A stretch of 64,000 nt of DNA from Octopus vulgaris. Lineage: Eukaryota. Positions 12,591-45,210 of this stretch are shown in pieces. The first letter of the stretch is position 1, and each line of letters starts with the position of its first letter. The DNA lies in NCBI GenBank assembly GCA_951406725.2, contig OX597821.1, positions 58,590,001 through 58,654,000 on the forward strand. Direction: 5' to 3'. The position numbers and the translations under genes were made by a program. The notes beneath the pieces were generated by a model. That model saw only the letters and a list, made by a program, of their open reading frames with translations. It did no database searches and was not told the origin of the DNA.

Positions 12591-15500
12591 ATGACTGGCT
12601 TCTTTCAGTTGCTGTCTTCCAAATCTATACATAAGACTTTTGTCAGCCTGAGGCTAAAGTAGAAGGCCCTTGCCCAAAATGCCACAAAGTGGGCTTGAAC
12701 CCAAGACCCAAGATTTTTAACTACACAACCATGTCTGTGACTTAGAGAATGAGAATGCAGTAAAGTGGTTTGTGCTATACAGATGCAGGATGGAATGGTC
12801 TGAGTAAATACCAGGAGAAAAAAAAGTATTAAAGTTTGATCAGTATAAACACTGGTTTCCAGATTCTTTTCTACTCTAGGCACAAGGGAGCCAGTCAATT
12901 AGATTGACCCCTGTATGCAACTGGTACTTAATTTATCGATCCCAAAAGGATGAAAGGCTAAGTTGACCTCAGTGGAATTTGAACTCAGAACGTAAATACA
13001 GACGAAATGCCGCTAAGTATTTCACCTGGCATGCTAATGTTTCTTATTTCTTTATTGCCCACAAGGGGCTAAGCATAGAGGGGACAATCAAGGACAGATA
13101 AAGGGATTAAGTCGATGACATTGACCCAGTATGTAACTGGTACTTAATTTATCGATCCCGAAAGGATGAAAGGCAAAGTCGACTTCGGCGTAATTTGAAC
13201 TCAGAACATAACAGCAGACAAAATACTGCTAAGCATTTCACCCGGTGTGCTAACATTTCTGCCAGCTTGCCACCTTTTTCTCAGATTCAGCACCTTAGGC
13301 ATGTGAGACATTTTGGCATTGCTGATTTGGCACCGACTTACTTGACATCAGACATTTTAACGTCTTTCTCTCTCTCTCTCTCTCTCTCTCCCTCCTCCCC
13401 CTCTCTCTCTGTTTATGCACATGAGCATATTACTCATTATGTATATTAAGAGGGGGAAAGTTTTCATATCATTATGTTCAATTAATAAATCATAGTGCCT
13501 ATGCTAGTGCTATGTAAAAAAACACCCAGTACTCTCTGTAAAGTGGTTGTTGTTAGGAAAGGCCCCCAGTTGTGGAAACCATGCCAAAACAAACAATTGG
13601 AGCCTGTTGTAGCTCTCTGAATTGCCAGCTCCTGTCAAACTGTCCAACCCATGCTGGCATGAAAAACATGCTAAATGATGATGATGATGGTGATGTCTCT
13701 TCTCCCCCGCTTCTCTTACTCCCATCTCTCTCCTTTTGTATATTTCTGCGTGTGTGCAGTGTCAAAATGTAGTCACCAAAACTGGTCAGATGTCCAGTCC
13801 GTGTCCAAACAGCTGCATCCAATTGTCCAATCATCTCATTCCATATATAGAAGTAACTACTGGGCTATTATTCTTTTATTTGTTTCAGTCATTTGACTGC
13901 AGCCATACTGGAGCACCGGCCTTAGTTGAAGAAATCAACCCCAAGACTTATTCTTTGTAAGCTTAGTACTTATTCTATTGGTCTCTTTTGCTGAACTGTT
14001 AAGTTACGGTGACGTAAACACACAAACATTGGTTGTCAAGCGATGTCTGTATTTGCCCCCGCCACCATCACTTGACAACCGATGTTGGTGTGTTTACATC
14101 CCTGTAACTTTGTGGTTTGGCAAAAGCGACCACTAGAATAAGTACTAGGCTTACAAAGAATAAGTCCTGGGGTCGATTTGTTTCGACTAAAGGTGGTACT
14201 CCACCATGACTGCAGTAAAATGACTGAAACAATTGAAAAAGAAAAGAATAAGTACTCGAGTTGATTTGTTTGACTAAAACCCTTCTAAGCAATGCCCCAG
14301 CATGGTCACAACACAATGACTGAAACAAGTAAAAGATAAAAGATTATACCAAATCATCTCCTAGTTGAGGGCTATACTGCACTTTTTGACTGAGTGGTGA
14401 TGAACCATATTTGGTATGATATGATAATTACTTGCTTATTTTATTTTTGTGTCACAACCCATGCTGTCTCCAACCCATGCTGGCATGAAAAACATGCTAA
14501 ATGATGATGATGATGATGATGATGGTGATGTCTCTTCTCCCCCGCTTCTCTTACTCCCATCTCTCTCCTTTTGTATATTTCTACGTGTGTGCAGTGTCAA
14601 AATGTAGTCACCAAAACTGGTCAGATGTCCAGTCTGTGTCCAAACAGCTGCATCCAATTGTCCAATCATCTCATTCCATATGTAGAAGTAATTACTGGGC
14701 TACTGTTCTTTTATTTGTTTCAGTCTTATTTATCTAAGTCTGATGCAGTTGCCTTTGTTCAAATGGGAAGGTCCTCTGGAAAGAAAGATTGACTTTTAAC
14801 TGTAAAGTTGAATGATTGCAACTTTTACGTCTTTTAATGACTTTGCAACAATTTTGGGTTGACAAAACTGCAATAATTGATGTCATAAGGTGGTGAGCTG
14901 GCAGAAATGTTAGCATGTCGGGTTAAATGCTTAGCAGTATTTCATCTGTCTTTATGTTCTGAGTTCAAATTCTGCCAAGGTCAACTTTGACTTTCATCCT
15001 TTCGGGGTCGATAAATTAAGTACCAGTTGCATACAGGGGCCAATCTAATCGACTGGCCACCTCCCCAAAATTTTCAAGCCTTGTGCCCAGAGTAGAAAAA
15101 AATAATTGATGTTGTTGAATGTTAATTCTCAAAGATTATTTTCTGTGTGTGTGTGTGTGTGTGTGTGTTGTACATATGCATGTGTTGAAGATTAAGTTTT
15201 GGGGATTTCTAAAATGATAATATTCAAAGTGTTCATATACATCTACTATAGCCTGTGTCATCATCATCATCATCATTGTCATTTTAGTGTCTGCTTTTCC
15301 ATGCTCACTTGGCTCAGATGGAATTTTCTGCAGCTGGATGCCCTTCCTGTCACCAACCCTCACCTATTTCCTAGTAAAGTAATATTTTCCCCATGACCAA
15401 ACATGTTTGCAGGTAAGATTAGAAACAAAGGACACTCATAATAACAGCACTCACCATTATCATGCAATGTCAAGGCAAGGAAACAGTAACACACATACGC

Positions 15501-15814
15501 ACACACACACACTCACTCACACATACACACACACACGCGCGCGTGCATGCAAACACACACACAGACACATATATGGCATGTAAAAAGCACCATCTGAACG
15601 TGGGTGATGCCAGCACTGCCTTGACTGGCTTCCGTGCTGGTGGTACGTAAAAAGCACCCACTACACTCACGGAGTGGTTGGCATTAGGGAGGGCATCCAG
15701 CTGTAGAAACACTACCCGATCAGACTGGAGCCTGGTGCAGCCTCCAGGCATCCAGACCCTGGTCAAACCGTCCAGCCCATGCTAGCATGGAAAACGGACG
15801 TTAAACGATGATGA

Positions 15815-15859
<45 letters not shown>

Positions 15860-16815
15860 CGAGAGGTTTTGGTATCCAGAAGACCCAAAATGGCAGGTAA
15901 GACTATGTAAGTGCTACGAAAGGACTGTAGTTATTTAACTGTCTCATATCGTCTCTGCCTTTCTCTTTATAAATGTCCTAGAAATTTCACACTGCCTTGG
16001 CTTTGCTGTTCCATTTTATTTAACACACACACACTGCTGACTACCAAATCCATCTACAAGGCTTTGGTTGGCCCAGGGCTATAGTAGATGACACTTGCTC
16101 AAGATGCCATGCAGTGAGACTGAACCTAACTCCATGTGATTGGGAATCAAACTTCTTACCACACCTGCCCCTATTGACACAACTAAATTAATCTCACAGT
16201 GGTCCCGATGTTGGGTCTTCTCGTTACTCATTCAGTGGAACTCTCTGCTGATAGAATTGCAAAGAAAATGGTTGAATATTCCAAAGAGACTTGCACTCTT
16301 AGTTCAGTCTTCGGAGTGACTCGGTACAACATTAGATGTGACAAACTGGGTCTTTGAATTACAAATAAAGTACATCTGATGGGCTTCTATACAATTCCTT
16401 TCTGCCCAGTTTCATTCATAGCACTTGGGTTGATATGAGGATTTTGTAGATGATGCTGGCTCATGGGGTACATAAGGGACTTGATCCCAGACCCTCATGA
16501 TTGTAAGGTACTTCTGATCATTTTATTCTACCTATACACATCTTGTAAACAGACTTAATTCTTTCATACAAAATTTAAAAAAAAAAAAAACTTTTATCTT
16601 TTACTTGTTTCAGTCATTGGACAGTCGCCATACTAGGGTATCACCATGACAGTCTAGTTGAACAAATTGACCCCAGAACTTGGTTTTTTTATGTTTGGTA
16701 CTTATTCTGTTGGTCCCTTTTACTGAACTGCTAAGTTATAGGGGCATAAACAAACTAACACCAGTTGTCAAGTGGTTGTGGGGGACAAACGTAGTTACAA
16801 AGAAATGCATATACA

Positions 16816-16863
<48 letters not shown>

Positions 16864-19177
16864 AGGTTTCTACACAGTTTCCTTTTATGACAGACATATT
16901 CACAAGTCATTGGTCAACTCAGGGCTATAATAGAAGACACTTGCCTAAGGTGCCATGCCGTGGGACTGAACCCAAAACCACTTTGTTGCAAAATGGGCTT
17001 CTTAACCACACAGCCATGTCTGCACCTAACAATTTTTCTTTACTCTACAAATTTTAGCTTCAATTATGGAAGGCTGGTAAGGAAATTAAAAACATTAATT
17101 TGCAATGATGTAAACAGAAGTCAACTTGATGAACTGAATTTTCAGTGTCATGATTGGCAATATGGATTGCATGATGTTGTGATTGTAGACCCCATGTTGA
17201 GTCCTGATTGAGCTGAACTATGATCAGCTACGTTCCAGCCATGACCATCTCATCTAACTTTCAGTTATGGAGTATCTAGGACTACATTATCCAATCTGCC
17301 CTTCCAATGCTTAAGAAAAATATGGGTTGAGATTTGACTGTTGTTTCTAGCAAGTCGAGCATCCATTTAGAGAGGCACTCTCTTTTACTTGCAATAATTG
17401 TTGCTGGTGTTGTCCTAATTTTCAAATCATTATTTTTAATTGCTGCATAAATGACGTTGAGATTTCTAGTCACATGTTATCATTGACACCCATTAAACAT
17501 TTTGCTGTTTAACCCCAGGCTGGCTCTGGTTGTCCAGAATTATGATCAAAAACAATCCAGCTATAACCTCTTATTTATTTTTTTAAAAGTTTTTTTTCTA
17601 CTTGTTTCAGTCATTAGACCGTGGCCATGCTAGGGTACCACCTTGAAGAATTTTTCTTTGAATGAATTGACCCCACTTTTTTTTAAGGCTGGCATTTATT
17701 CTATCTGTCTCTTTTGCTGAACTGCTAAGTTAGGGGGGATGTAAACGTGCCAATGCCGGTTGTCCAGCAGTGGTGGCAAATCGACGCAGATACAAAGACA
17801 CATACACACACATACAGATTATATGTATATGACAGGCTTCTTTCAGTTTCCATCTACCAAATACACACACAAAGCTTTTGTTGGCCTGAGGTTGACCTTG
17901 TTATATTTTATATGCCATCAGATATGGTGTGGTGGTAAGAAGCTTGCTTCCCAACCACATGGTTCTGGGTTCAGTACCACTGCATGGCACCTTGGGTGAG
18001 GGTCTTCTACATTTTTATTGCTAACTTTTACATAGCTGGGGCTTGAAGTGTTTATGAATGCATACCTGATCGTTATAGACTCTATACGAGATCTTTTTTA
18101 CTCAGTAGTTTTATAAAATACATTTGAAAACTTTCACATACATTAAAAGCTACTAGAAATTTTAGCATTTTCTCATAGGTGTAATGCATATGAAGGTAGA
18201 AAGAAAGTAGAAGTTATTTTACATCTACATGAAAGTTTTCACAGATATAAAATGGCTATCAAATTTGTTAACAGAAAGACATTATATATATCTATAAATC
18301 TATATCTGTATCTATATATGAAAAGAAATATATATATATATATATATATATATGGGGCTTTGTTGGAGCTGGATTTTCTACGGGGATCATACTCTTGCTT
18401 ACCACCAACCTCAGTTTCTAGACACGAGTGGTCCTGAGACCAAGGCCTCTACCATGATTTTTAAGAAATGTGGTGGGAAGCCTCATGATAACAAAGGAGA
18501 ATGGACACCAGCCAGTCAGCCCAAAGGTTGGGTGGGCTGCACTTGCCTACATTGGTTGCTATGGCATTGAGGTAGATCTGGCCACCCCCTGTTAATGGAG
18601 ACAAAACCCGGATTTAAAACACTAGATGATGATGATATATATGTGTGTGTGTGTGTGTGTGTGCGTGTGCTGAACCTTTCTTTAAATTTGTTGGGTGTTC
18701 TTTTTTTGTTTTCAACTTCTTAAACTATAGAAAAGCTTTATCTCTTTTATGTTGTTACATGTAACGTGCTAATGTCATAAAAAAGACCTTTTACCTTTAC
18801 GATTTACATTACCCTTTTTTAAAATTTTGTTAGCATTTATGTAGTCAGGGTTTAAAGTGTTTATAAATGGGTACCTGTTATTTGTAGAACTTTTTACTCA
18901 GCAGTTTTACAGAATGCATTTGAAAAACACAAATTAAAAATTACTGGAAAATTTAATTCCCAATTAGAAAGGACCTAGTTATAATCTGATATTCATTTAA
19001 AAAAAAATACTATATTTACTCATATATAAGTGGCACCCTTAATTTAGTGTTTAAATCTTGCTACAAATTTTTTTTCCTTTCATAGTTTAAGCTTTGCCCC
19101 ATATAAGTCATATCCCAGTTTTTTTCCATTAAAATAAAGTATTTGACTATGTGACTTATACACAAGTAAATACAGTA

Positions 19178-19399
19178 TACAAGGGGATGCTGAAAAGTTC
19201 CTGGTTTTAAGGGTATCATGAAAGGCCTGGTTGGAGGCCCAACCATCTGGGTTCTTTCACAGGGCTTAGAAAAACTGAAGGCTCGCTGCAATAAGTGTGT
19301 GATTCTGAGAGGAGAATATGTTGACTAAAAAAAATCTTAATTAACTGATCCTCCTGTATTTTCTTTTACTCAAAGCCAGGAACTTTATAGCATCCCCTC

Positions 19400-19402
<3 letters not shown>
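19178..19402. mobile_element. Mariner-like MITE
   Basis: TIRs TA|CAAGGGGATGCTGAAAAGTTCCTGG and CCAGGAACTTTATAGCATCCCCTCG. Second copy in the opposite orientation at 32535..32753. Confidence 0.8.
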
Positions 19403-19436
<34 letters not shown>

Positions 19437-19570
19437 CACACACACATATATATATATATATTTAAAATATATTCTGCAAAGTGACTTTTTTTTAAGGTAT
19501 GTTTTGTAAAACATAACTAAACTATTAAAGTTTAAAAATTCACAAAAAGATATTTTTTTTTATTTTGATT

Positions 19571-20872
19571 TCAACAACAACAGCAGCAACAACAACAAAA
19601 ATATGAATACCATTTAGAACTCACTTTGGTAGTTTGTATTTGATTTTGTGGCATTTCTGTTGGACTGAAATGAGGAAAGCGAAGGGGTTTGCTAAATATT
19701 GGTGTTAAAAAGTTTGATGTTATTTTCTGCGACATTGTAAGGTGAGGTAAAATCCGTTGTCCAATGAAAATAGGTATCCTGAATCTTAGTTTCCCGCTTA
19801 ATCCAGAAAAAGTGATCTCAACCTGTAAGTAGTGGGACACTTGAAATAATTTGCATTTGTACTGACTGATACACAGGGCCGCATTCTTGTGAATAGGAAG
19901 AAAAATCTGGAATTTATTTTCCTTCTTTTCATTCTGTGATGGTTCCTCTATTGGACTAGGGTCCTTTGAGCGCACATGCGAAATGCATTTAGAAAAACGT
20001 TCACTCTTTTCTTCAAACTGAACCAACTGGTTAAGTGTTCCTGTAATTTTCGAAACTGATTTTGTTGGCCATCCTGGGTCGATGGCTATCTGGAGACCAA
20101 GGCAGATCCTCTCTCCTGGTTCATATAACCTCTTGTCAAGAGTTAAGACAATGTGAACTTGTTTTCCACGACTGAACTTTAATTTGGTTTTCTCTTCATG
20201 ATTCACAGGAATCAGTGCCTCTGACAGTCTGTTTACTAGGCTACTGGGAGATTCTTCAACTTGAAAGTGTTTCTTTCTCAGTAGCACAGTATGGGGATCC
20301 CTTGATTGAAAATTGTGGCTTGAGGGATGAATGTTGAGGGGTGTATGAATATATATGGCTATAAAGTAGGTAATTTCTAATACAACTGTGTTTTTGTCTT
20401 CATAGAGCAACGATGATGGTATATCTGGTGGTAACCAGAATTTATACTGTGAGCTGTACAAGCCTGGCATGGCAATCATCCTTTCATGAGGATTACCCAG
20501 AACAGCAAACTTTTTATTCATGAAAACCTTTTTAGGAGCACCTCCGATTCCTGTTTGTAGATATGTAGCACTGCTTTGACCAACGATAATCATTTCAATA
20601 AATTGTAGCTCCAAAGGATGTTTTATGTAAAACTCCAAGTCAATAGTCATCAGTTCACCAGGCTCATAATTTGCATCATCTGCTTTCTGAGTGTAGATTT
20701 GAAAATATGATATTGGGCTTGAGTTCCGTACCCTGTGTGTAGATCTACCCAGAGTTGGAAAGGTTGTAAACACTTGGTGTATATCTCTACTCGATAGTGA
20801 CTTTCGGATTGGTGCTCGATGGCGTGTATGATATGTCGACTGACTCAAAGTTTTCCTTCTTAGAGTTGTCAT
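19571..20872 (-). CDS. Alpha-arrestin / arrestin-domain-containing (ARRDC-like) protein, 433 aa, single coding exon, nested antisense in an ALS2 intron
   Basis: Long repeat-free ORF. Arrestin_N-like YEPGELMTIDLEFYIK and PGLYSSQYKFWLPPDIPSS...ITYFIAIYI; Arrestin_C-like VHIVLTLDKRLYEPGERICLGLQI and CKLFQVSHYLQVEI...LRFRIPIFIG. In-frame TGA two codons before the ATG. Ends in YSYFCCCCCCCC-stop. Confidence 0.85.
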   Translation of the reverse strand: MTTLRRKTLSQSTYHTRHRAPIRKSLSSRDIHQVFTTFPTLGRSTHRVRNSSPISYFQIYTQKADDANYEPGELMTIDLEFYIKHPLELQFIEMIIVGQSSATYLQTGIGGAPKKVFMNKKFAVLGNPHERMIAMPGLYSSQYKFWLPPDIPSSLLYEDKNTVVLEITYFIAIYIHTPLNIHPSSHNFQSRDPHTVLLRKKHFQVEESPSSLVNRLSEALIPVNHEEKTKLKFSRGKQVHIVLTLDKRLYEPGERICLGLQIAIDPGWPTKSVSKITGTLNQLVQFEEKSERFSKCISHVRSKDPSPIEEPSQNEKKENKFQIFLPIHKNAALCISQYKCKLFQVSHYLQVEITFSGLSGKLRFRIPIFIGQRILPHLTMSQKITSNFLTPIFSKPLRFPHFSPTEMPQNQIQTTKVSSKWYSYFCCCCCCCC

Positions 20873-23800
20873 CTTTCAACCAGTTATTGAATCTGAAAAG
20901 TGATTTCTGATTCTGTCAGGGAAATTTTTTCTTAAACTTGTATGATTTGCAGAAATCTCTGTTATGATGACACGTCTCCAGTTGAAGAAAATAATTTCTC
21001 AGCAAATCTTATTTATTTTGCTTTTCAGTGTTAAAGCTGTTGAGGAGTAGTTGCAGATTGTAGACTGTAATCTTTATTGTAGATATATGTGCTAGCAAAC
21101 TGGTTAAAGCACTTCTATACTCACAAATTTTTTTGTTTCTGTTTTAGTTTTTATTAAAGGTGTGTCATTGTAAAATGATGTATCCAGCAAGCAATTTCTT
21201 TTTATAGCTTAAGACGGTAACTTTTTGTTTTTTGTGGTTTCCATGCACACAGTACAGATAATGTTCGCCTCTGGGGGAGAAAACAGGTTCTACCTAAGTG
21301 TCAGTTGCCAGCACCATACATAATACTGATTGACCAATAATGAAGCTGGATTGATATAGAGAATGTTAAACACATTGTTCCTTTAAATTATGGAGGATAT
21401 ATATGTAAATTACCAATTCAGTGTCTGAGTTATTTATTCATTCCATTTCCAACTTATATACTGGGAAGAAAATACAAAGCAACATTCCGTTATGTAACTT
21501 TTCTATGTTAACTACCAGTATGATTGGCTCCTGGTTATTGTTGCCTTCTTTTTTTAAACAAGTAATTTTTTTTTCAATTTGCTGAATGATATTTCTAAAT
21601 TTCCCATGAAGGCATATGCTTTCATTTTATCTGATTGTTTTCTTGGGAAAAATGTTTTGTGGAGATCTAATTTGAATAAACTGACATGAAACAAGAAAGA
21701 AATCACTGTTGTTTAATAATAACAAACTAGAACTTGATGAGGGAAGCATTTCAACTCTCTCTCTCATTATCTATCAGATGCAGTGGGACTGGCATGAGAC
21801 AATTGGGTGTAGCTGTTTGGACATTGATGATTTGGCCTGGCTGACTGGACATCCAGCTTGTTTTGGTGACAGTACTTTCTGGTGCTGGAGGAAAATTTAC
21901 ACACTCACACACACTTGTGCTCAGAAGTGTGTGTGTGTGTGTAAAAACCATGCCAAAAGTGACCTTGCCTGTGCAAGTACCACATAAAAAGCACTCAGCC
22001 CACTCTGTAGAGTAGTTGGTGCTAGGAAGGGCATCCAGCCACAAAAAAAAAAAGATGCCAAAACAGACACAGAAGTCTGGTGTAGTCTTCTACCTGGTCA
22101 GATCCTGTCAAACCATCCAACCCATGCCAGCATGGAAGGCGGATGTTAAACGATGTTGATGGTGTGTGTGTGTGTGTGAAGGCATGTGGCCTAGTGGTTG
22201 GGACAGCCACACTTTTGAGATTGTGGTTTTGATTCTCAGGCTGGTTGCACATTGTGTTCTTGAGCAAAGCACTTCATTTCATGCTGCTCCAGTCTGCTCA
22301 GTTGTAAATGGGTAACCCTTCCAAGTGGGGGGAATGTTGGCCTGCTCCTCTAGCCAGCAGAGTAGCTTCATTTGAAAGCTAAAATAATACAAAGTGCATT
22401 GTGACTAGCGATGTATAACAACATCTGATAGTCTGGTCAATACTGCAGTTGCTATTTTACTCTACAGGACCCCACCCCCACTCCATAGCTGTTTGATGTT
22501 TTAAAAATCCTATATATTTGAGTATTATTAGAAATTGTATAAAAAAAAATTGTTTAAATATTTTGTTTATTGAAGAAGTATAACTAATTTATTGCAGATA
22601 ATTTTCAACCACAAAATCTTACATAAACCCCAGTTCAGAGCCACTGAGTTAATGGTTTGAGAAAGAATTTGAACAGTGGGAAGGGAGTTCTTGATAGATT
22701 CAGATGTGGGAGATTTAGGACTAATTGAACCAGTTTGAGGAAGAGGAGAGGTGCACTGACTTGGTGTAAGAAGACATGGTTTGTCAACTGTATAAAGATG
22801 TCAAACTCAGAAGAATCAATGGCATTGGGTTGGCAACTTTGGAGAAGGGGCATAACCTGACTATAGACTAGTAATTGGAGTGTGTTAATGTATTCATATT
22901 TGCTAGCTGTTGTTTCTGGCTTTGAGAAAAAGTTGTAACCTTTGTGATAGAAATATTTGTCATAATACTGTAGAAGACAGCTGGAAACTATTCTATGCTT
23001 TTCTTTCATTATTTCTTAATTTCAAGTCCCAACTTCTAATCCCACCAAATATTATGAAGAAATAATTATCTCCCTTGTATTAACTGTCCACTAGGGAACT
23101 CCATGTATTCCAGTACAGCTTTCCCAATAAAATATCAATTCTTTCTCTGCATATTTTTTTTATTGCTGTTACTTGTCTGTCAAAACATGAGAATGTATAA
23201 AGTAACTGAAGTTGGTATGTGGGTTTTGCTGAGATAGCTGAGAGAGAGAGAGAGAGAGAATGTGTGAAAAGGTCAGAGTGTCAAAAGAAAACCTGTTGGA
23301 CCTTTATAATGATATACAAAAAGTAATGCCACAATACAGTGCAGTGGAAGCAGGTGCAAACCAGCTGTGCACTTGTATGTTTTTTTTTTCTGGTTGACAA
23401 ACAAATGACAAATTTCTTGTTAATGTTATAAAAGTTAAAAGTAAGATTCTGTCATGAAATGAAGATGATAAACATATATTTATATAAATCATACCCCTAA
23501 TTTAGTGTTAAATTTTGGTACAAAGATTGCATGCATACCATGGCAGTTTTAGCTTTATCCCATGTATAAGTCACAACCCTGTTTTTGCAGTTTTTATAAA
23601 GTATAAAAATAATGCAACTTATAAAGGAATAAATGCAGTAAGTTCACCAAAAGTGGATTTTAAAAGATTTTTTTAACAATTTGCATTAGCAGGACTGTTT
23701 TAATACGTCAGATATTTATACTAACAAGTTCTTGAGTCACAAAATACTACTAAATTGGAACCTAATAGAAAAATACCGTCTGTCTGTCTGCCTCTCTGTG

Positions 23801-32534: not shown

Positions 32535-32753
32535 TATGAGGGGGTGCTGAAAAGTTCCTGGCTTTGGGTGAAAGAAAATACAGGAGAGTCAGTTAATTAT
32601 GATTTTACGCATTGTACTCCCCTTTCAGATTCACACATTCATTGCAAGGGTATTTCAGTTTTCCTATGCCCTGTAAAAGAACTTGGAATGTTGGGCCTCC
32701 AACCAGGCTTTTCACAACACCCTTAAAGCCAAGAACTTTTCAGCAACCACTCA
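32535..32753. mobile_element. Mariner-like MITE (second copy)
   Basis: TIRs GAGGGGGTGCTGAAAAGTTCCTGGCTTT and AAAGCCAAGAACTTTTCAGCAACCACTC; interior homologous to 19178..19402. Confidence 0.75.
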
Positions 32754-32860
32754 CTTGTTTATATGTTTGTGTGTGCATATGTGTGCGTGTTTGTATGTAT
32801 TTGCATGTATGCATTCATATCTATAGTCTATCATTATCCTTTTCTTTTTTCTTTTTACAG

Positions 32861-33105
32861 TGAGGAAGAAAAGGATGGAATTGTTTGTCTGTGGGAAGGA
32901 TACTATGGAGACATACGACTGCAAACATTCGACATATTTTCCAACAAGGTCATCAAGAGAGTATCCCTTGGTTTTGACCATAGTCTTTTCATCAGCCAAG
33001 AAGCTGAGGTGTTTGCTTTGGGCAGTAATAGCCATTGTCAATTGGGACTCAATGGGTTGACAAAAACCTCAATCACTACCCCACAAATATTGGAAATATT
33101 CAATG
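32861..33105 (+). CDS. ALS2: ALS2 coding exon, first RCC1-like blades
   Basis: Pyrimidine tract TTTTTACAG acceptor and G|GTGAGT donor (phase 1). Encodes RVSLGFDHSLFISQEAEVFALGSNSHCQLG, an RCC1 repeat. Confidence 0.93.
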
Positions 33106-33408
33106 GTGAGTAATTATTTTTACAGGCGTTTATGTATTGATTTCATATCCAGGCACAATAAGCTACAGATTTATTCGGAAGAAGGAATCGGATGTGTGTC
33201 ATTCATGCCTTTCTTGGCAGTGTTAGTGCTATTACATGAGCACATGGCACGGCTCTGTGGTTAAGAACTTTGCTTTGTAAACATCAGCCAAGTGGTTTCA
33301 TGTTTGGTGCACAAGTGCTGTAGGTGTGTGTCTTTTACCACATCTTTGGGTTGACCAGCATATTCTGAGTGAAACAGATGGAAACTGTGTGGAAACCTCT
33401 CATATATA

Positions 33409-33747
33409 CACAGACATCTCAAAAGTAGACAGACACCACCATTTTTGAAAGGTCTATTTCTAGAAATAAAATAATGTCATTTAATACATTTAAGTACTTA
33501 ATCTAGTATTTAATAGACATGCCTTGTGTAGTTTTTTTATGTGTCTGCACTGTATGTGTGTGTGTGTGTGCGCATGTGAGTGTGGCCAAGCCCCCTTAGA
33601 GTGTGAGAATTTAAGGGCCAAAACACTTGCCTGAACGAGTTGCTTTTCTAAAGACCTTCTGCTGTTCAGCTGTCTTGAGAGTTTCTTATCACTTATCTGT
33701 CTGCACTGTATAATGAGGGACATCTATTTACTTTTGAGATGTCTGTG
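33409..33747. mobile_element. Tc1/mariner-type MITE with TA target duplication
   Basis: TA|CACAGACATCTCAAAAGTA ... TACTTTTGAGATGTCTGTG|TA. Part of the interior is also present at about 32125-32260. Confidence 0.8.
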
Positions 33748-33914
33748 TATATTGTTGAGCAATATATTCCTCATTATGGCATAATGTTACCAATGGTTTC
33801 ACTCCATCTATTGCATTTGGCAATACTGACAATTTCTCTCACATGCTGACCAGAAGCACATGGCCTCTTTTGTGTTGAAGGTAAATATACAGCCCTGGTT
33901 CACATGAACTAGAA

Positions 33915-34084
33915 CAGTGGTTCCCAACTTGGGGTCCCGCAAAGGTAGTACTGGGGGTCTGTGAACTAAATTCAAAATTTCATTCACATATATATATATA
34001 AGGATAGGCATATTAAAAGGAGTCCATGGGAGAACACATTTAAATAAAAGGGTTGGAAACCACTGAAAAGGTTGGGAACCGCTG
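33915..34084. mobile_element. hAT (Charlie-like) MITE
   Basis: TIRs CAGTGGTTCCCAAC and GTTGGGAACCGCTG; 8 bp flanks AACTAGAA and AACCAGAA (TSD with one mismatch). Confidence 0.78.
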
Positions 34085-34785
34085 AACCAGAATAAAAAAG
34101 TGGTGAACACTTAGGATATTTTCTGGGAGGGAAAGAAAAGCCGTCTCTCATGGAATGATATCAGCTGTGACTGAAGAGTTTCAGGTGTGCATGTGTACTT
34201 TTTTGGGTTTTTTTCTCTTTTCTTAAAAAGGAGACAACTAAATTGCCAAAAGGAATTTTCTTTCAGGAGGACAGCAGTGAAATATTTCGCTTAAAAAAAA
34301 AATTATGTGGGTATGCACTTGCACACATACACATGAACACATACAAACACACTATGTTGTTTAGGAAAGCATAACAAATAATATGCATATAATAAATTAA
34401 TTTGTGGAGGCGCGTGGCTTAGTGGTTAGGGTGTTAGCACCATGATTGTAAGATTGTGGTTTTGATTCCTGGACCGGGCGACATGTTGTGTTCTTGAGCA
34501 AAACACTTCGCTTCATTTTGCTCCAGTCCACTCAGCTGGCAAAAATGAGTAACACTGCAATGGACTGGTGTCCCATCCAGCTGGGGAACACATACACCAT
34601 AGAAACTGGGAAACCGGGCCCATGAGCCTGGCTAGGCTTTAAAAGGGCGCATTTATATATTTATTTATAATAAATTAATTTACCATGACCTCTTGTAAAA
34701 ACGTCTGTGTTAAATGTCTTTAAAAACACATTTAATCAGACTGGATATCCTTGTGTAACGTAATTTATTGTATTTTCTGTTTCAG

Positions 34786-36564
34786 GAAAGGAGATAACAG
34801 AAGTGGCATGTGGAAAACAGTACAGTGCTGCTGTGTCTTCCTCTGGAGATGTTTTTACTTGGGGTGATTCCACAAAAGACCAGTGTGGTTTGGGACGTTC
34901 TGAGATAATTTCTAACCCTGAGCAAGTCACATTTCGTTTGACAGAAGATAAATGTAAACATGGGATTCCAATGCCTGAAGAAAAGATCCTGATACGTCAG
35001 GTAGCCTGTGGTGAGACCCACACATTGGCTATTTCCTGCAGGGGTGAGTTATGGGTCTGGGGTAGTGGAATGGGACTTGGATTAGGAGAACAAACAACTT
35101 CTCCTGTACCAGAAAGAGTGGAAGATCTTTTAGAATACAATGTACTTGATGTCTCATGTGGTCTGTCACATAGTATAGCTTTGGTTGAAAAACAAGGAGC
35201 CATTGGTACACCTAAAAAGATGAGTTCTGATATGAGATTCCACAAGTATTATCCTCCAACATGTGCCAAGTGTAACCAAGAGATCTATAGCTACATTGAA
35301 ACTAATGATTTGTGTATTATAAGTGATGAACACACTTGCTGTAAGAAACCTGACAACAAAGCACCGATAACGAGATCTGAATCTTTAAAGAATGAGTCAT
35401 TATCAAACTCTGCCCCATGTCTAACAAAAGAAACAGACAGCAGTTCTGCCTATGAATCCTCTCAACTGACATCAGAATCAACTGAACCTTCTGAAATAAA
35501 TTCTAGCAATGGAATTACAGGTGGCAAAAGTCAATCTTGTAGCAATATTAATAAACCTTTTGTTTCTTCACAAGAACCTGAAGAAAAACATACTACAGAT
35601 TTGAAAACTGGAGAAAATCAGTCCCAAAATGGGCAAATTGTGAACTTAACTACAAAAGATGAAGTCATCCAAACTTCACAATCTGAAGAGAAAAGTGCTT
35701 GTGAGACAAAGGCTGCTGATAGTTCTTGTCCTACAAATTCTGTAGCAGAATGTGATAATAAATTAAAACCTCGACTAACAAATGATGCGATTCAAGCAAC
35801 TCTGGACAATAACATGGAAAGCGAAGCAAATGGAAATACAATTCCAAACACTGCTAATTCTGAAGAATTTCAAGAACATTCTAAGGAAAATAATTCAGTT
35901 CAGAAAATCGTTGATTCTTCAGACAACTCAGAGACTCCTGTGAAAAATTCCGTTGACTCTAAAGGGGATTTGGCTGATGATGCAGATTGCAATAATAGTC
36001 ACAGTTCACAACCTTCAACAACTGTTAGTATGGAAAATATAGTTCAAAAATCTCATATTTTGGATGAAGATGAAGCTCGGGAGTTCCTCGCCAAACAACT
36101 CTGCAACCGAGAAGATTCTGATACAGATTTGGGTTGTCAACATCCTATTAAAAGTCGGTTGGAAAACTTACTTATTTCAGTTCCAGAAACTTCTGTGGCT
36201 GTCGTTCAACAGGTCACTGATTTAACCCATCGGGCAATCAGCACATTCCGATCATCAGTTGGCAGCATGGCAGATTCCTTTGGTTTTGTCTCTGGTCAGG
36301 GTATAGAATTAGATGGTCTTTCAAAGTCTAGCAGCATTGATTCCAATTTACAGTCAGACACTGACTCGCCAAACTTATCCCGTCGTGACTCTGTCTTTAC
36401 ATATGATACTTCAGTAAGTGAGGATTTGTGGAGAAGAAGATCTGGCAGTACCGATGATATTCTTTTGAGTGAGAGGTCCGATTCACATTCTTCCCTCAGA
36501 GCCCTTTGGAGACGATCCAAGAGGCTTGAAAAAGACCGACAGACACATAAAAAAGATGAGAAAA
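34786..36564 (+). CDS. ALS2: ALS2 large coding exon (1779 nt): RCC1 repeats plus long low-complexity insert
   Basis: TTTCAG acceptor and A|GTAAGT donor (phase 1). Encodes VACGKQYSAAVSSSGDVFTWG, VACGETHTLAISCRGELWVWG and VSCGLSHSIAL, then CAKC...IISDEHTCC as in alsin and a Ser/Glu/Asn-rich insert. Confidence 0.95.
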
Positions 36565-36753
36565 GTAAGTCAGAGTTTTACTGTCACTTGTTTCTTAGAA
36601 TTTTTCCTGTTTTTTTCACTTATGATTTAGTCAAATCTCCATTCTTTTTCTTTCTCCTTTATACAGTAATCCCTTGCCATATTGCGGTTCATTATTTAAG
36701 CTTACACCCCCATTGTATCTTTTTATCTTATTTAAAGCAGATACATTTTTAAA

Positions 36754-42770: not shown

Positions 42771-45210
42771 ATTAGAGTAGATTATGTACTTTTGGACTAT
42801 AGTAGACAATTCTTGTAGCTATTGTGCAACACTCTGTGTTATGGATAGTGTCTTAGACTTTTAAGACAGTTTAGATCCAACAATCAAGATGTGTGTAACA
42901 CATAGTAACATGGACTTTTATGGTGACTGTGGTTTTTGATCCAGCTCAGCTATAATCTATGGTAATCCAGACCATCCTCTCTTTTATTCAGACATACTGT
43001 ATCCGATGGCAATTAAGCTGTATCAGCCCCTTTGCCTTTCCCTTGGATAACATCGGTGGCATGGAGAGGGGTAGCTGCTATGCATGGATGACTGCTGGTC
43101 TTCTATAAACAGACTTGTGCCTCAGAGGGTAACTTTCTAGGTGCATCCCATTGTTATTCATAACCAAAGGGAGTCTTTACCTCTTTACTGTATTTGATGG
43201 TATAAAAGATGCTCGAGTGTGTTGGATGCACCCCAATTTCAGCAGTATATATTCAGGAAAAACAAAAAGTGTTTAGTTTATTTTAGTATGTAATTTAGGC
43301 CCATCTTTGTATATCGGATTAGGACTGATTTTTTTTCAAGACATTTTTGGAGGAAAAAGTATGTCTTATGTACCATCATGTATGGCAATTTACAGAGGAC
43401 TACATTATCTAATGTGTGTTTCCATTTTAAAGCCAGTTGGGTGTGATTTGAAGGGGATTTGGTTACTATTTATAGCATGTCAAGTGATTTGGTAGGGGCT
43501 TGGGCTCCCTTGTTGGCTACCAAATTATAGTTTAATTAAAGTTTGCTCAAGTTTGAGAACAAGCTGCAATGCAGACTAAATTCATTATCTTAAGTAGTTT
43601 GAAATTAACATAGAAGTATCATAAATTTTATTTTCATCTTACTGTCATCAAAACTGGAACCAACTGAATCAACCATGTAGATGGAACCAGTAAAGAAGAG
43701 CCTCTATACAAACAAATGAAAAAAAATCTTTGGAAGTCAATGAGACACGCTTCTGCATATTTGTCTGACCTGCAAGAAATCGCAGCTAAATCTGCCTTAA
43801 ATCATATCCTACTGTTGAAGAAAAGAAACTGAGACAAAACACATCAGGTGATATAGTTGTTGTAAACACAATGTCTAGAAACACAATATAGTTATAGAAA
43901 AATGCTGTCTGAAAAAATGATGGGATAGTCACAGCTGGGATATCTTTGATTAGGGTTGACCTGGAACTAAACAAAAGTGACAACAACAGCAACAACAACA
44001 GTTTTATAACTTCCTCTTTTGTGTCTTTGCTTAGTGACTGGGATTCCTCTCTAAAAACAGCTTTTTAGTGAAAATTATGAAATAGTCAGTTTTTTTTTTT
44101 TATTAAGTGTTATTAAAATGGCTTACCTTGTCTATAAATACATGTAAAAAAAAAAAGCTGGGTGTATATTTCTTTTTTTTTTTTCTTTTCACAATTGTCA
44201 TTGAAATAATTCCTTTTTCCACCCATATTTATTTTTCAACCAACAAGTCCTACAACAATGTGAAACATTAATTTCATTTGTTTCTCACAGTCATTTGCAG
44301 TCTCCTCCCTCCTCAACCCCCACCCCCACCCAATAGAGGAGAATATGAAAGTGTGATAGTCACTTATCCATCTCTTTAATTATAAAACAAAACAAAAGAC
44401 AACAAATTTTCCTTTTATTGCAGTCATAGGTGCAGCTACGGCTGTGCGGTTATGAAGCTTGAATTGCAACCATATGGTTTCAGGTTCAGTCCCACTGCAC
44501 TGCACCTTAGGCAAGTTTCTTCTACTATAGCTGCTGATTGACCAATGTTTTCTGAGTGAATTTAGTATACTCTCTCTTTACTCTCTCTCTTTTACTTGTT
44601 TCAGTCATTTGACTGTGGCCATGCTGGAGCACCACCTTTTCAGTTGAGGGGTCTTGTCTTATGAGTTACTTAGTAACCTGACTAGTGTTGGTGCTGTGTA
44701 AAAGGCATCTAGTACATACTGTAAAGTGGTTGGTGTTGGGAAGGGTATCCAGCCATAGAAACCAAAGATGTTTCTTCCTGACCAATATCTCCAATGTAAA
44801 CTAATTTCCATAGCGGGAACCATTGAAAAGGGGGAGAAAGAGAGACACTATCAACATTGATGTGGTTAGTTATTTTTCACAAGTATTTCAGAATTGCTTC
44901 TTCAGAAAATTTCAAGAAAATATTTTTATTGTTGTTGTGTAGTTCTAAATCAGCCGTAGCCATTCCATATTTTGTTTCTAGGTGTAGTGTATTGATGGCT
45001 AGATTTTTCAACATGCCCTTTCATTCTTTGTCATTTCTTCAGTGAGAGGTTTCTGGATTTGGGCTGCTATTTCTAACACTTTAAGCAGTCATGTAGAAGC
45101 TTCCTCAATAGCTTGTAACAAATATGTATTTCGAGAAAGTTTTTTTTTAAATGTTTCCTACAAAAAAAAAAAGAAAGAATTTATATCATTCATATATTTT
45201 GATTCCTTAG

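Follow-up and report, generated by a model that had tools for sequence, protein, structure and literature searches.

An Octopus vulgaris arrestin of a mollusc-wide clade with a C-terminal cysteine cluster that is likely S-palmitoylated

The minus strand of Octopus vulgaris contig OX597821.1 carries a single-exon gene for an arrestin, P0001, that lacks PY motifs and ends in eight consecutive cysteines. We propose that P0001 belongs to a mollusc clade of PY-less arrestins whose C-terminal cysteine cluster is probably S-palmitoylated and holds the protein at a membrane. Comparison of the relatives places the clade across the molluscs, and marks the eight-cysteine string as the octopod extreme of a cluster tail that its members have in common. 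The initial annotation, made from this DNA alone, described the string but missed the tail module to which, on the evidence of the relatives, it belongs, with a conserved strand just before the cysteines. Coordinates refer to the window, the whole 64-kb stretch of DNA that was analysed, and published work is cited for the accessible parts of each source. The features of the gene are as follows.

19571..20872, minus strand: arrestin-fold open reading frame P0001, a single exon of 433 aa with an Arrestin_C match (E=7e-17), at one genome locus
20723..20872, minus strand: N-terminal extension, residues 1-50, basic, Ser/Thr-rich, predicted to be disordered, poorly conserved
20258..20719, minus strand: arrestin N-lobe, approximately residues 52-205, a beta-sandwich in the AlphaFold model
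19757..20206, minus strand: arrestin C-lobe, approximately residues 223-372, from PF02752 (237-372), AlphaFold and VIA
20162..20182, minus strand: C-edge-type loop, residues 231-237, aligned with the Cys-rich loop of ARRD-6
19667..19702, minus strand: conserved Phe/Pro motif P-x-F-x-[KR]-P-x-R-F-P-x-F, residues 391-402, C-terminal to the C-lobe
19607..19624, minus strand: tail strand V417-Y422, which holds the V-x-[ST]-K-aromatic motif and, by prediction, returns to pack against the core
19574..19597, minus strand: eight-cysteine string C426-C433, a likely S-acylation cluster whose last four residues formally fit CaaX

The gene and its fold

The reading frame is uninterrupted. Its end, which on the minus strand from 19600 to 19571 reads TTT TGT TGT TGT TGC TGC TGT TGT TGT TGA, encodes a phenylalanine and eight cysteines (19597-19574; six TGT and two TGC codons) before the TGA stop, confirming the terminal string of mixed codons that had been noticed earlier. 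An upstream coding exon is unlikely, given an in-frame stop two codons 5ʹ of the ATG, and a conserved splice acceptor before M1 was ruled out because the codon before it differs between O. bimaculoides (Met) and Argonauta (Ile). Reading of the TGA as selenocysteine was also rejected: there is no SECIS among the 11 weak Rfam matches in 15500-23500, none of which reaches the gathering score, and both octopod orthologues stop at the identical residue. Two protein queries (E 0.001) matched a single locus in the species' own genome, with no paralogue from the clade at that threshold. Other arrestin-domain genes are present elsewhere in the genome. A second arrestin-domain single ORF (L002:991-2166, plus strand; G000 C21), with an open frame of 391 aa, lacks PY motifs, and its acidic tail contains no cysteine.

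P0001 belongs to the arrestin clan, with tandem N and C beta-sandwich lobes. Pfam Arrestin_C (PF02752) matches residues 237-372, and AlphaFold, given a 30-sequence alignment, predicts two beta-sandwiches over approximately residues 54-370 (mean pLDDT 76). The top Foldseek ranks for this model are C. elegans ARRD-6, TXNIP, VPS26 and visual arrestin, and VIA aligns the whole core to VPS26 with Z 18.3 and to ARRD-6 with Z 17.8. The arrestin identity assigned in the initial annotation is thus borne out by Pfam, AlphaFold, Foldseek and VIA. Among aligned clade members, Arrestin_C was found in 30/30 and Arrestin_N in 29/30, the exception being P0001 itself.

Outside the two lobes, conservation is uneven. 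The first 50 residues, which had been described as basic and Ser/Thr-rich, do have that composition (11 Lys/Arg, 4 His, 15 Ser/Thr, 1 acidic), but they are poorly conserved (25/50 identical in Argonauta); residues 1-49 have pLDDT <50 in the octopus model, and the length of the extension ranges from 0 to 333 aa among 56 relatives. The C-edge column of the alignment holds Cys in 53/57 sequences, Argonauta included, and Phe (Phe233) in both Octopus proteins; the alignment thus indicates that this cysteine is lost in Octopus. The Phe/Pro motif is retained in nearly all of the 57 sequences (F393 in 54, F399 in 55, P400 in 54 and F402 in 52), with pLDDT <50 in the octopus model and ~50 in a Haliotis model. 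Residues 391-402 are the best candidate for a putative partner-binding linear motif.

A cysteine-cluster tail across molluscs

With P0001 as query, phmmer found 40 hits among 1.84 billion representatives; a search with a Haliotis relative found 33. Of the 65 distinct cluster representatives, 56 reach a core-profile coverage of 80% or more and were used for all counts; two of the nine that were dropped (<80%) still end in a CC cluster. A profile search of a 5.8-billion set with the clade alignment returned three proteins, all previously collected, and the ESM Atlas gave generic arrestin clusters, with no cluster for the mollusc clade.

A CC pair lies within the last 25 residues of 48/56 full-length relatives, versus 4/1183 internal 25-mers. 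The longest cysteine run is two in 34 relatives, three in 12 and eight in two, both of these being octopod representatives. PPxY is found in none of the 56 and LPxY in two, outside the tails. The 19/56 relatives with a source name are molluscs without exception (gastropods, bivalves, a chiton and Argonauta), and no squid, cuttlefish or Nautilus protein is among them. The eight relatives with no CC in the last 25 residues include one with a cluster further in, and in the chiton protein a single Cys stands at the end; some CC-less relatives may be true losses or truncated predictions. In a tree rooted on one distant outgroup, where support labels on the re-rooted path may be one node off, the octopods join the mollusc group at ~0.8 support, which is moderate, on a long branch of ~1.5-1.6 substitutions per site. 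The sister group has 15 proteins (P0017, P0018, P0020, P0023-P0027, P0029-P0031, P0034, P0035, P0037 and P0041). In most of their tails, 4-7 cysteines precede a terminal G-x-G-I-Y/H, which makes them a longer form of the tail module.

Is the octopod string a selected feature or merely a repeat? As DNA, the run is unremarkable. TRF scores it as a (CAA)9 microsatellite, and it is one of two runs of at least five TGY triplets in the 64-kb window. The other, of seven TGT/TGC triplets at 43980-44000 (minus strand), is tied to no gene found, and shows that such repeats also arise by chance in the Octopus genome. Hence, chance had to be excluded by comparison with relatives. A functionless (TGT)n microsatellite overlapping the gene end would fit a nine-unit trinucleotide repeat whose phase is kept by the stop codon, as well as the similar run at 43980-44000, and slippage probably contributed to building the string. 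Against this stands the constancy of the run, which the initial annotation had tied to function and which we find at the protein level: the proteins of O. bimaculoides, the closest named sequence (97% identity to P0001), and of Argonauta hians share the last 28 residues of P0001 without change, with exactly eight cysteines and the same stop in all three species. Between octopus and Argonauta, whose lineages split at least ~29 Ma ago by a fossil lower bound (PMC12682272), identity is 25/50 in the N-terminus, 264/345 in the core and 37/38 in the tail, and the conservation of the tail has P ~5e-4 if it evolves at core identity. The last two octopod cysteines also sit as far from the tail strand as does the CC of many gastropod relatives. 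Together, the retention of eight cysteines and of the stop position in both orthologues, and the CC clusters that end 48/56 relatives and so few internal segments, raise the run above chance. By this comparison of proteins, the eight-cysteine tail is under selection, and the neutral repeat is largely refuted; we consider it extremely improbable. The run would clearly exemplify a coding trinucleotide repeat whose length selection has kept constant in a repeat-rich genome.

Arrangement and predicted docking of the tail

Tails in the clade have a consistent order, with the Phe/Pro motif followed by a variable linker, the V-x-[ST]-K-aromatic motif and the cysteines. A loose form of the V-x-[ST]-K-aromatic pattern anchors 44/56 tails, and in 45/48 CC-bearing relatives there is a hydrophobic residue no more than two positions before the CC. 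Counted from the motif Val, the octopod run occupies offsets 9 to 16. The commonest CC position is offset 15 (13 of the 42 anchored tails with CC), and it is matched by the last two octopod cysteines. This match suggests that the octopod run likely replaced an ancestral tail helix, and that the segment beyond the last CC was lost. The helix itself is predicted in the Haliotis model, where the linker is disordered, confidence returns at residues 461-470 (pLDDT ~91) with a strand at 462-466, and a helix that holds the cysteines follows at 469-478. The equivalent strand in the octopus model is at 418-422 (pLDDT ~70). A confident, isolated strand in a tail implies pairing with the core. Hence, the chain is predicted to return to the core at the conserved tail strand, immediately ahead of the cysteines.

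Where might the strand dock? In each of the two VIA lists, VPS26 chain 5f0j_B is the only one of 50 matches whose alignment, up to residue 330, reaches the tail strand, and it adds ~3 aligned residues over that of 5f0l_B. We take the residues near 330 in 5F0J to occupy the VPS26 cargo groove in the crystal. On these ~3 aligned residues and that placement, the tail strand apparently lies on the C-lobe near the position of the VPS26 cargo-binding site. Cargo binds VPS26 between strands beta10 and beta18 (bioRxiv 10.64898/2026.05.05.722683), and the C-terminal tail of VPS26 autoinhibits cargo binding (PMC8635440). A motif search of the literature found nothing. A complex prediction for core (50-390) and tail (400-433), made without an alignment and with a tool unproven on peptides, scored 0.00 in two runs (mark 0.34), which speaks neither for nor against docking. 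In beta- and visual arrestins, which also have clathrin and AP2 motifs, a C-tail strand docks on the N-lobe in the three-element interaction. For P0001 such docking has no positive support: among the VIA matches listed for both models, no beta- or visual-arrestin match reached the strand. The last 42 residues of P0001 have no Pfam match.

A probable lipid anchor and its counterparts in other arrestins

The tails of the relatives bear directly on the kind of modification. In 40/48 CC-bearing relatives there is no Cys at a prenyl-compatible end position, and most CC-bearing relatives have 5-8 residues after the last Cys. S-palmitoylation is therefore likely to be the modification common to the clade, and the varying number and spacing of the cysteines are likely of the sort found in acylation clusters. 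The lipid anchor suggested in the initial annotation is thus the best reading of the conserved CC clusters in 48/56 relatives, as a prediction, but prenylation, which had been offered alongside palmitoylation, does not hold as a family-wide mechanism.

We propose that the tail returns past the disordered linker as a short strand, which docks on the core and continues into the cysteines. Docking near the cargo site would place the cysteines beside the C-edge membrane loop, where multiple palmitoylation by a DHHC acyltransferase could fix the protein to the cytoplasmic side of the membrane, stably but reversibly. Once anchored, the arrestin would resemble ARRDC5 or ARRD-6, staying at the membrane as the adaptor of a transmembrane partner instead of recruiting NEDD4 as a trafficking adaptor, and the partner site could be the Phe/Pro motif at 391-402. 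Counting against this model are the eight relatives that lack a terminal CC, and the octopod tail, which has two Lys/Arg in its last 34 residues and hence no polybasic patch to make the first membrane contact.

A prenyl group would provide that contact. The octopod end formally fits a CaaX box (Cys at -4), and farnesyltransferase accepts Cys as X. The main alternative is that a prenyl group goes onto C430, that the three residues after it are removed, and that the cysteines before it then receive palmitate, as in the dual anchor of H-Ras, the loss of post-Cys residues having turned a palmitoyl-only anchor into a prenyl-plus-palmitoyl one. Cys is at -4 in all three octopod proteins, and in five further relatives on separate branches (7/56 in all). 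However, prenylation is impossible for 40/48 CC-bearing relatives, any end of four or more cysteines satisfies the CaaX pattern automatically, and prenylation requires one cysteine, not exactly eight. We consider a prenylated octopod end unlikely. Still less likely, in our estimation, is a use of the cysteines as metal ligands or as a redox switch instead of for lipid, perhaps together with the C-edge cysteine. That residue is kept in 53/57 sequences and would adjoin the tail if the docking is as predicted, and a link between CYSTM proteins and metal tolerance has been described; the CYSTM clusters, however, turned out to be palmitoylated (PMC10840359 for both). The number and spacing of the cysteines vary, with longest runs of 2, 3 or 8 and no fixed ligand pattern, which makes metal or redox use less likely, and the change of the C-edge Cys to Phe in Octopus suits membrane insertion, not metal binding. 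S-palmitoylation of the cluster remains the reading that we prefer. We also entertain, tentatively and as somewhat doubtful, a further reading, that of an undescribed arrestin subfamily, in which a lipidated tail in a VPS26-type cargo groove would couple acylation, anchoring and opening of the partner site, with the octopods having a CaaX-ended string. The octopod end would then be one of several independent moves from palmitoyl-only to prenyl-capable tails.

Recruitment of arrestins to membranes is usually transient and depends on the C-edge loop, phosphoinositides or cargo. The least understood branch, to our knowledge, is that of the PY-less alpha-arrestins. The closest functional parallel to P0001 is ARRDC5, which has arrestin N and C domains, lacks PPxY and is S-palmitoylated by ZDHHC19, probably on two cysteines (PMC11912386); WW proteins are not enriched in its interactome (PMC10945707). 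The accessible part of a second ARRDC5 paper has no passage on palmitoylation (PMC12927553). By analogy, P0001 most likely works as ARRDC5 does, held by lipid and lacking PY, although its tail module is distinct. The P0001 cluster is C-terminal, whereas the accessible part of PMC11912386 does not place the acylated cysteines of ARRDC5 at the C-terminus. Human ARRDC5 has 342 aa (PMC10590129), in contrast to the 433 aa of P0001, whose named relatives (19) are all molluscan. ARRDC5 also removes the claim that a lipidated, PY-less arrestin would be without precedent, and hence no principle is overturned by P0001. What would be new, judging from sequence comparison and models, is the docked, cysteine-rich C-terminal tail module. 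Full-text searches, which covered main texts and few subscription papers, listed no account of the mollusc clade or of any arrestin that ends in a string of cysteines.

The best PDB match of P0001 is ARRD-6 (7USY; profile E=4e-21, Foldseek E=1e-15), the C. elegans arrestin of the TMC-1 mechanotransduction complex, which has a Cys-rich C-edge loop that enters the membrane and possibly carries palmitate (PMC9605866). The anchor of ARRD-6 is this loop, whereas the candidate anchor of P0001 is the C-terminal string. An exon elsewhere in the genome (L014:1321-1710, plus strand; G000 C23) closely resembles ARRD-6 and is likely part of its octopus orthologue. As this exon is, by inspection, much closer to ARRD-6, P0001 falls outside the ARRD-6 orthologous group. 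In the profile ranking ARRD-6 (4e-21) is followed by TXNIP (4e-17), the second-best PDB match, and beta-arrestin (1e-9). By structure score, VPS26, ARRD-6 and the arrestins come out level, and a place of P0001 among the alpha-arrestins in the broad sense (ARRDC5 type included) is tentative at most. VPS26 shares the fold of P0001 (VIA Z 18.3, rmsd 4.4, 270 aligned residues), but with 13% identity and no Vps26 Pfam match in any of 30 clade members (E 0.05), and we know of no lipid tail in VPS26.

P0001 also has the two-lobed fold of the PY-bearing alpha-arrestins (ARRDC1-4, TXNIP and the yeast ARTs). In contrast to these, no clade member has PPxY (56/56), and the tail consists of the Phe/Pro motif, the strand and the cysteine cluster; by these features P0001 is not a canonical PY alpha-arrestin or ART. 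A motif scan confirmed that neither PPxY nor LPxY occurs in its 433 aa. This absence had been regarded as unusual, but PY motifs, although proposed as a criterion for alpha-arrestins, are not common to all of them (PMC2699828). They are missing from ARRDC5, from 4/12 Drosophila alpha-arrestins (PMC10945707), from C. elegans ARRD-15, ARRD-17 and TTM-2, for which the authors leave open other ligase routes (PMC10590129), and from the L002 reading frame of the Octopus genome.

Cysteine clusters are well known as anchors outside the arrestins. That of cysteine-string protein anchors a soluble protein through multiple palmitoylation, and SNAP-25 and the CYSTM/CYSPD proteins are similarly held by palmitoylated clusters, as we propose for P0001. 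In CYSPD proteins the anchoring cluster is C-terminal (PMC10840359). CYSTM proteins are small and Pro/Gln-rich, and Pfam found no CYSTM match in 30 clade members, which marks CYSTM/CYSPD as an analogue of the P0001 tail, not a homologue. On a single conserved scaffold, the mollusc clade provides a natural series in which the cysteine count runs from two to eight and a CaaX-like end is present or absent. It should ease tests of how PY-less arrestins are targeted to membranes and of whether a docked tail gates a partner site.

Two neighbours of the gene complete the description of the locus. A reading frame of 124-126 aa at 22635-23015, on the same (minus) strand and 1.8 kb upstream of the arrestin, has no Pfam match. 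The plus strand at 32727-36752 carries exons of an RCC1-repeat gene (Pfam RCC1), presumably alsin/ALS2-like, which lies ~12 kb away from the start of the arrestin and runs divergently to it.
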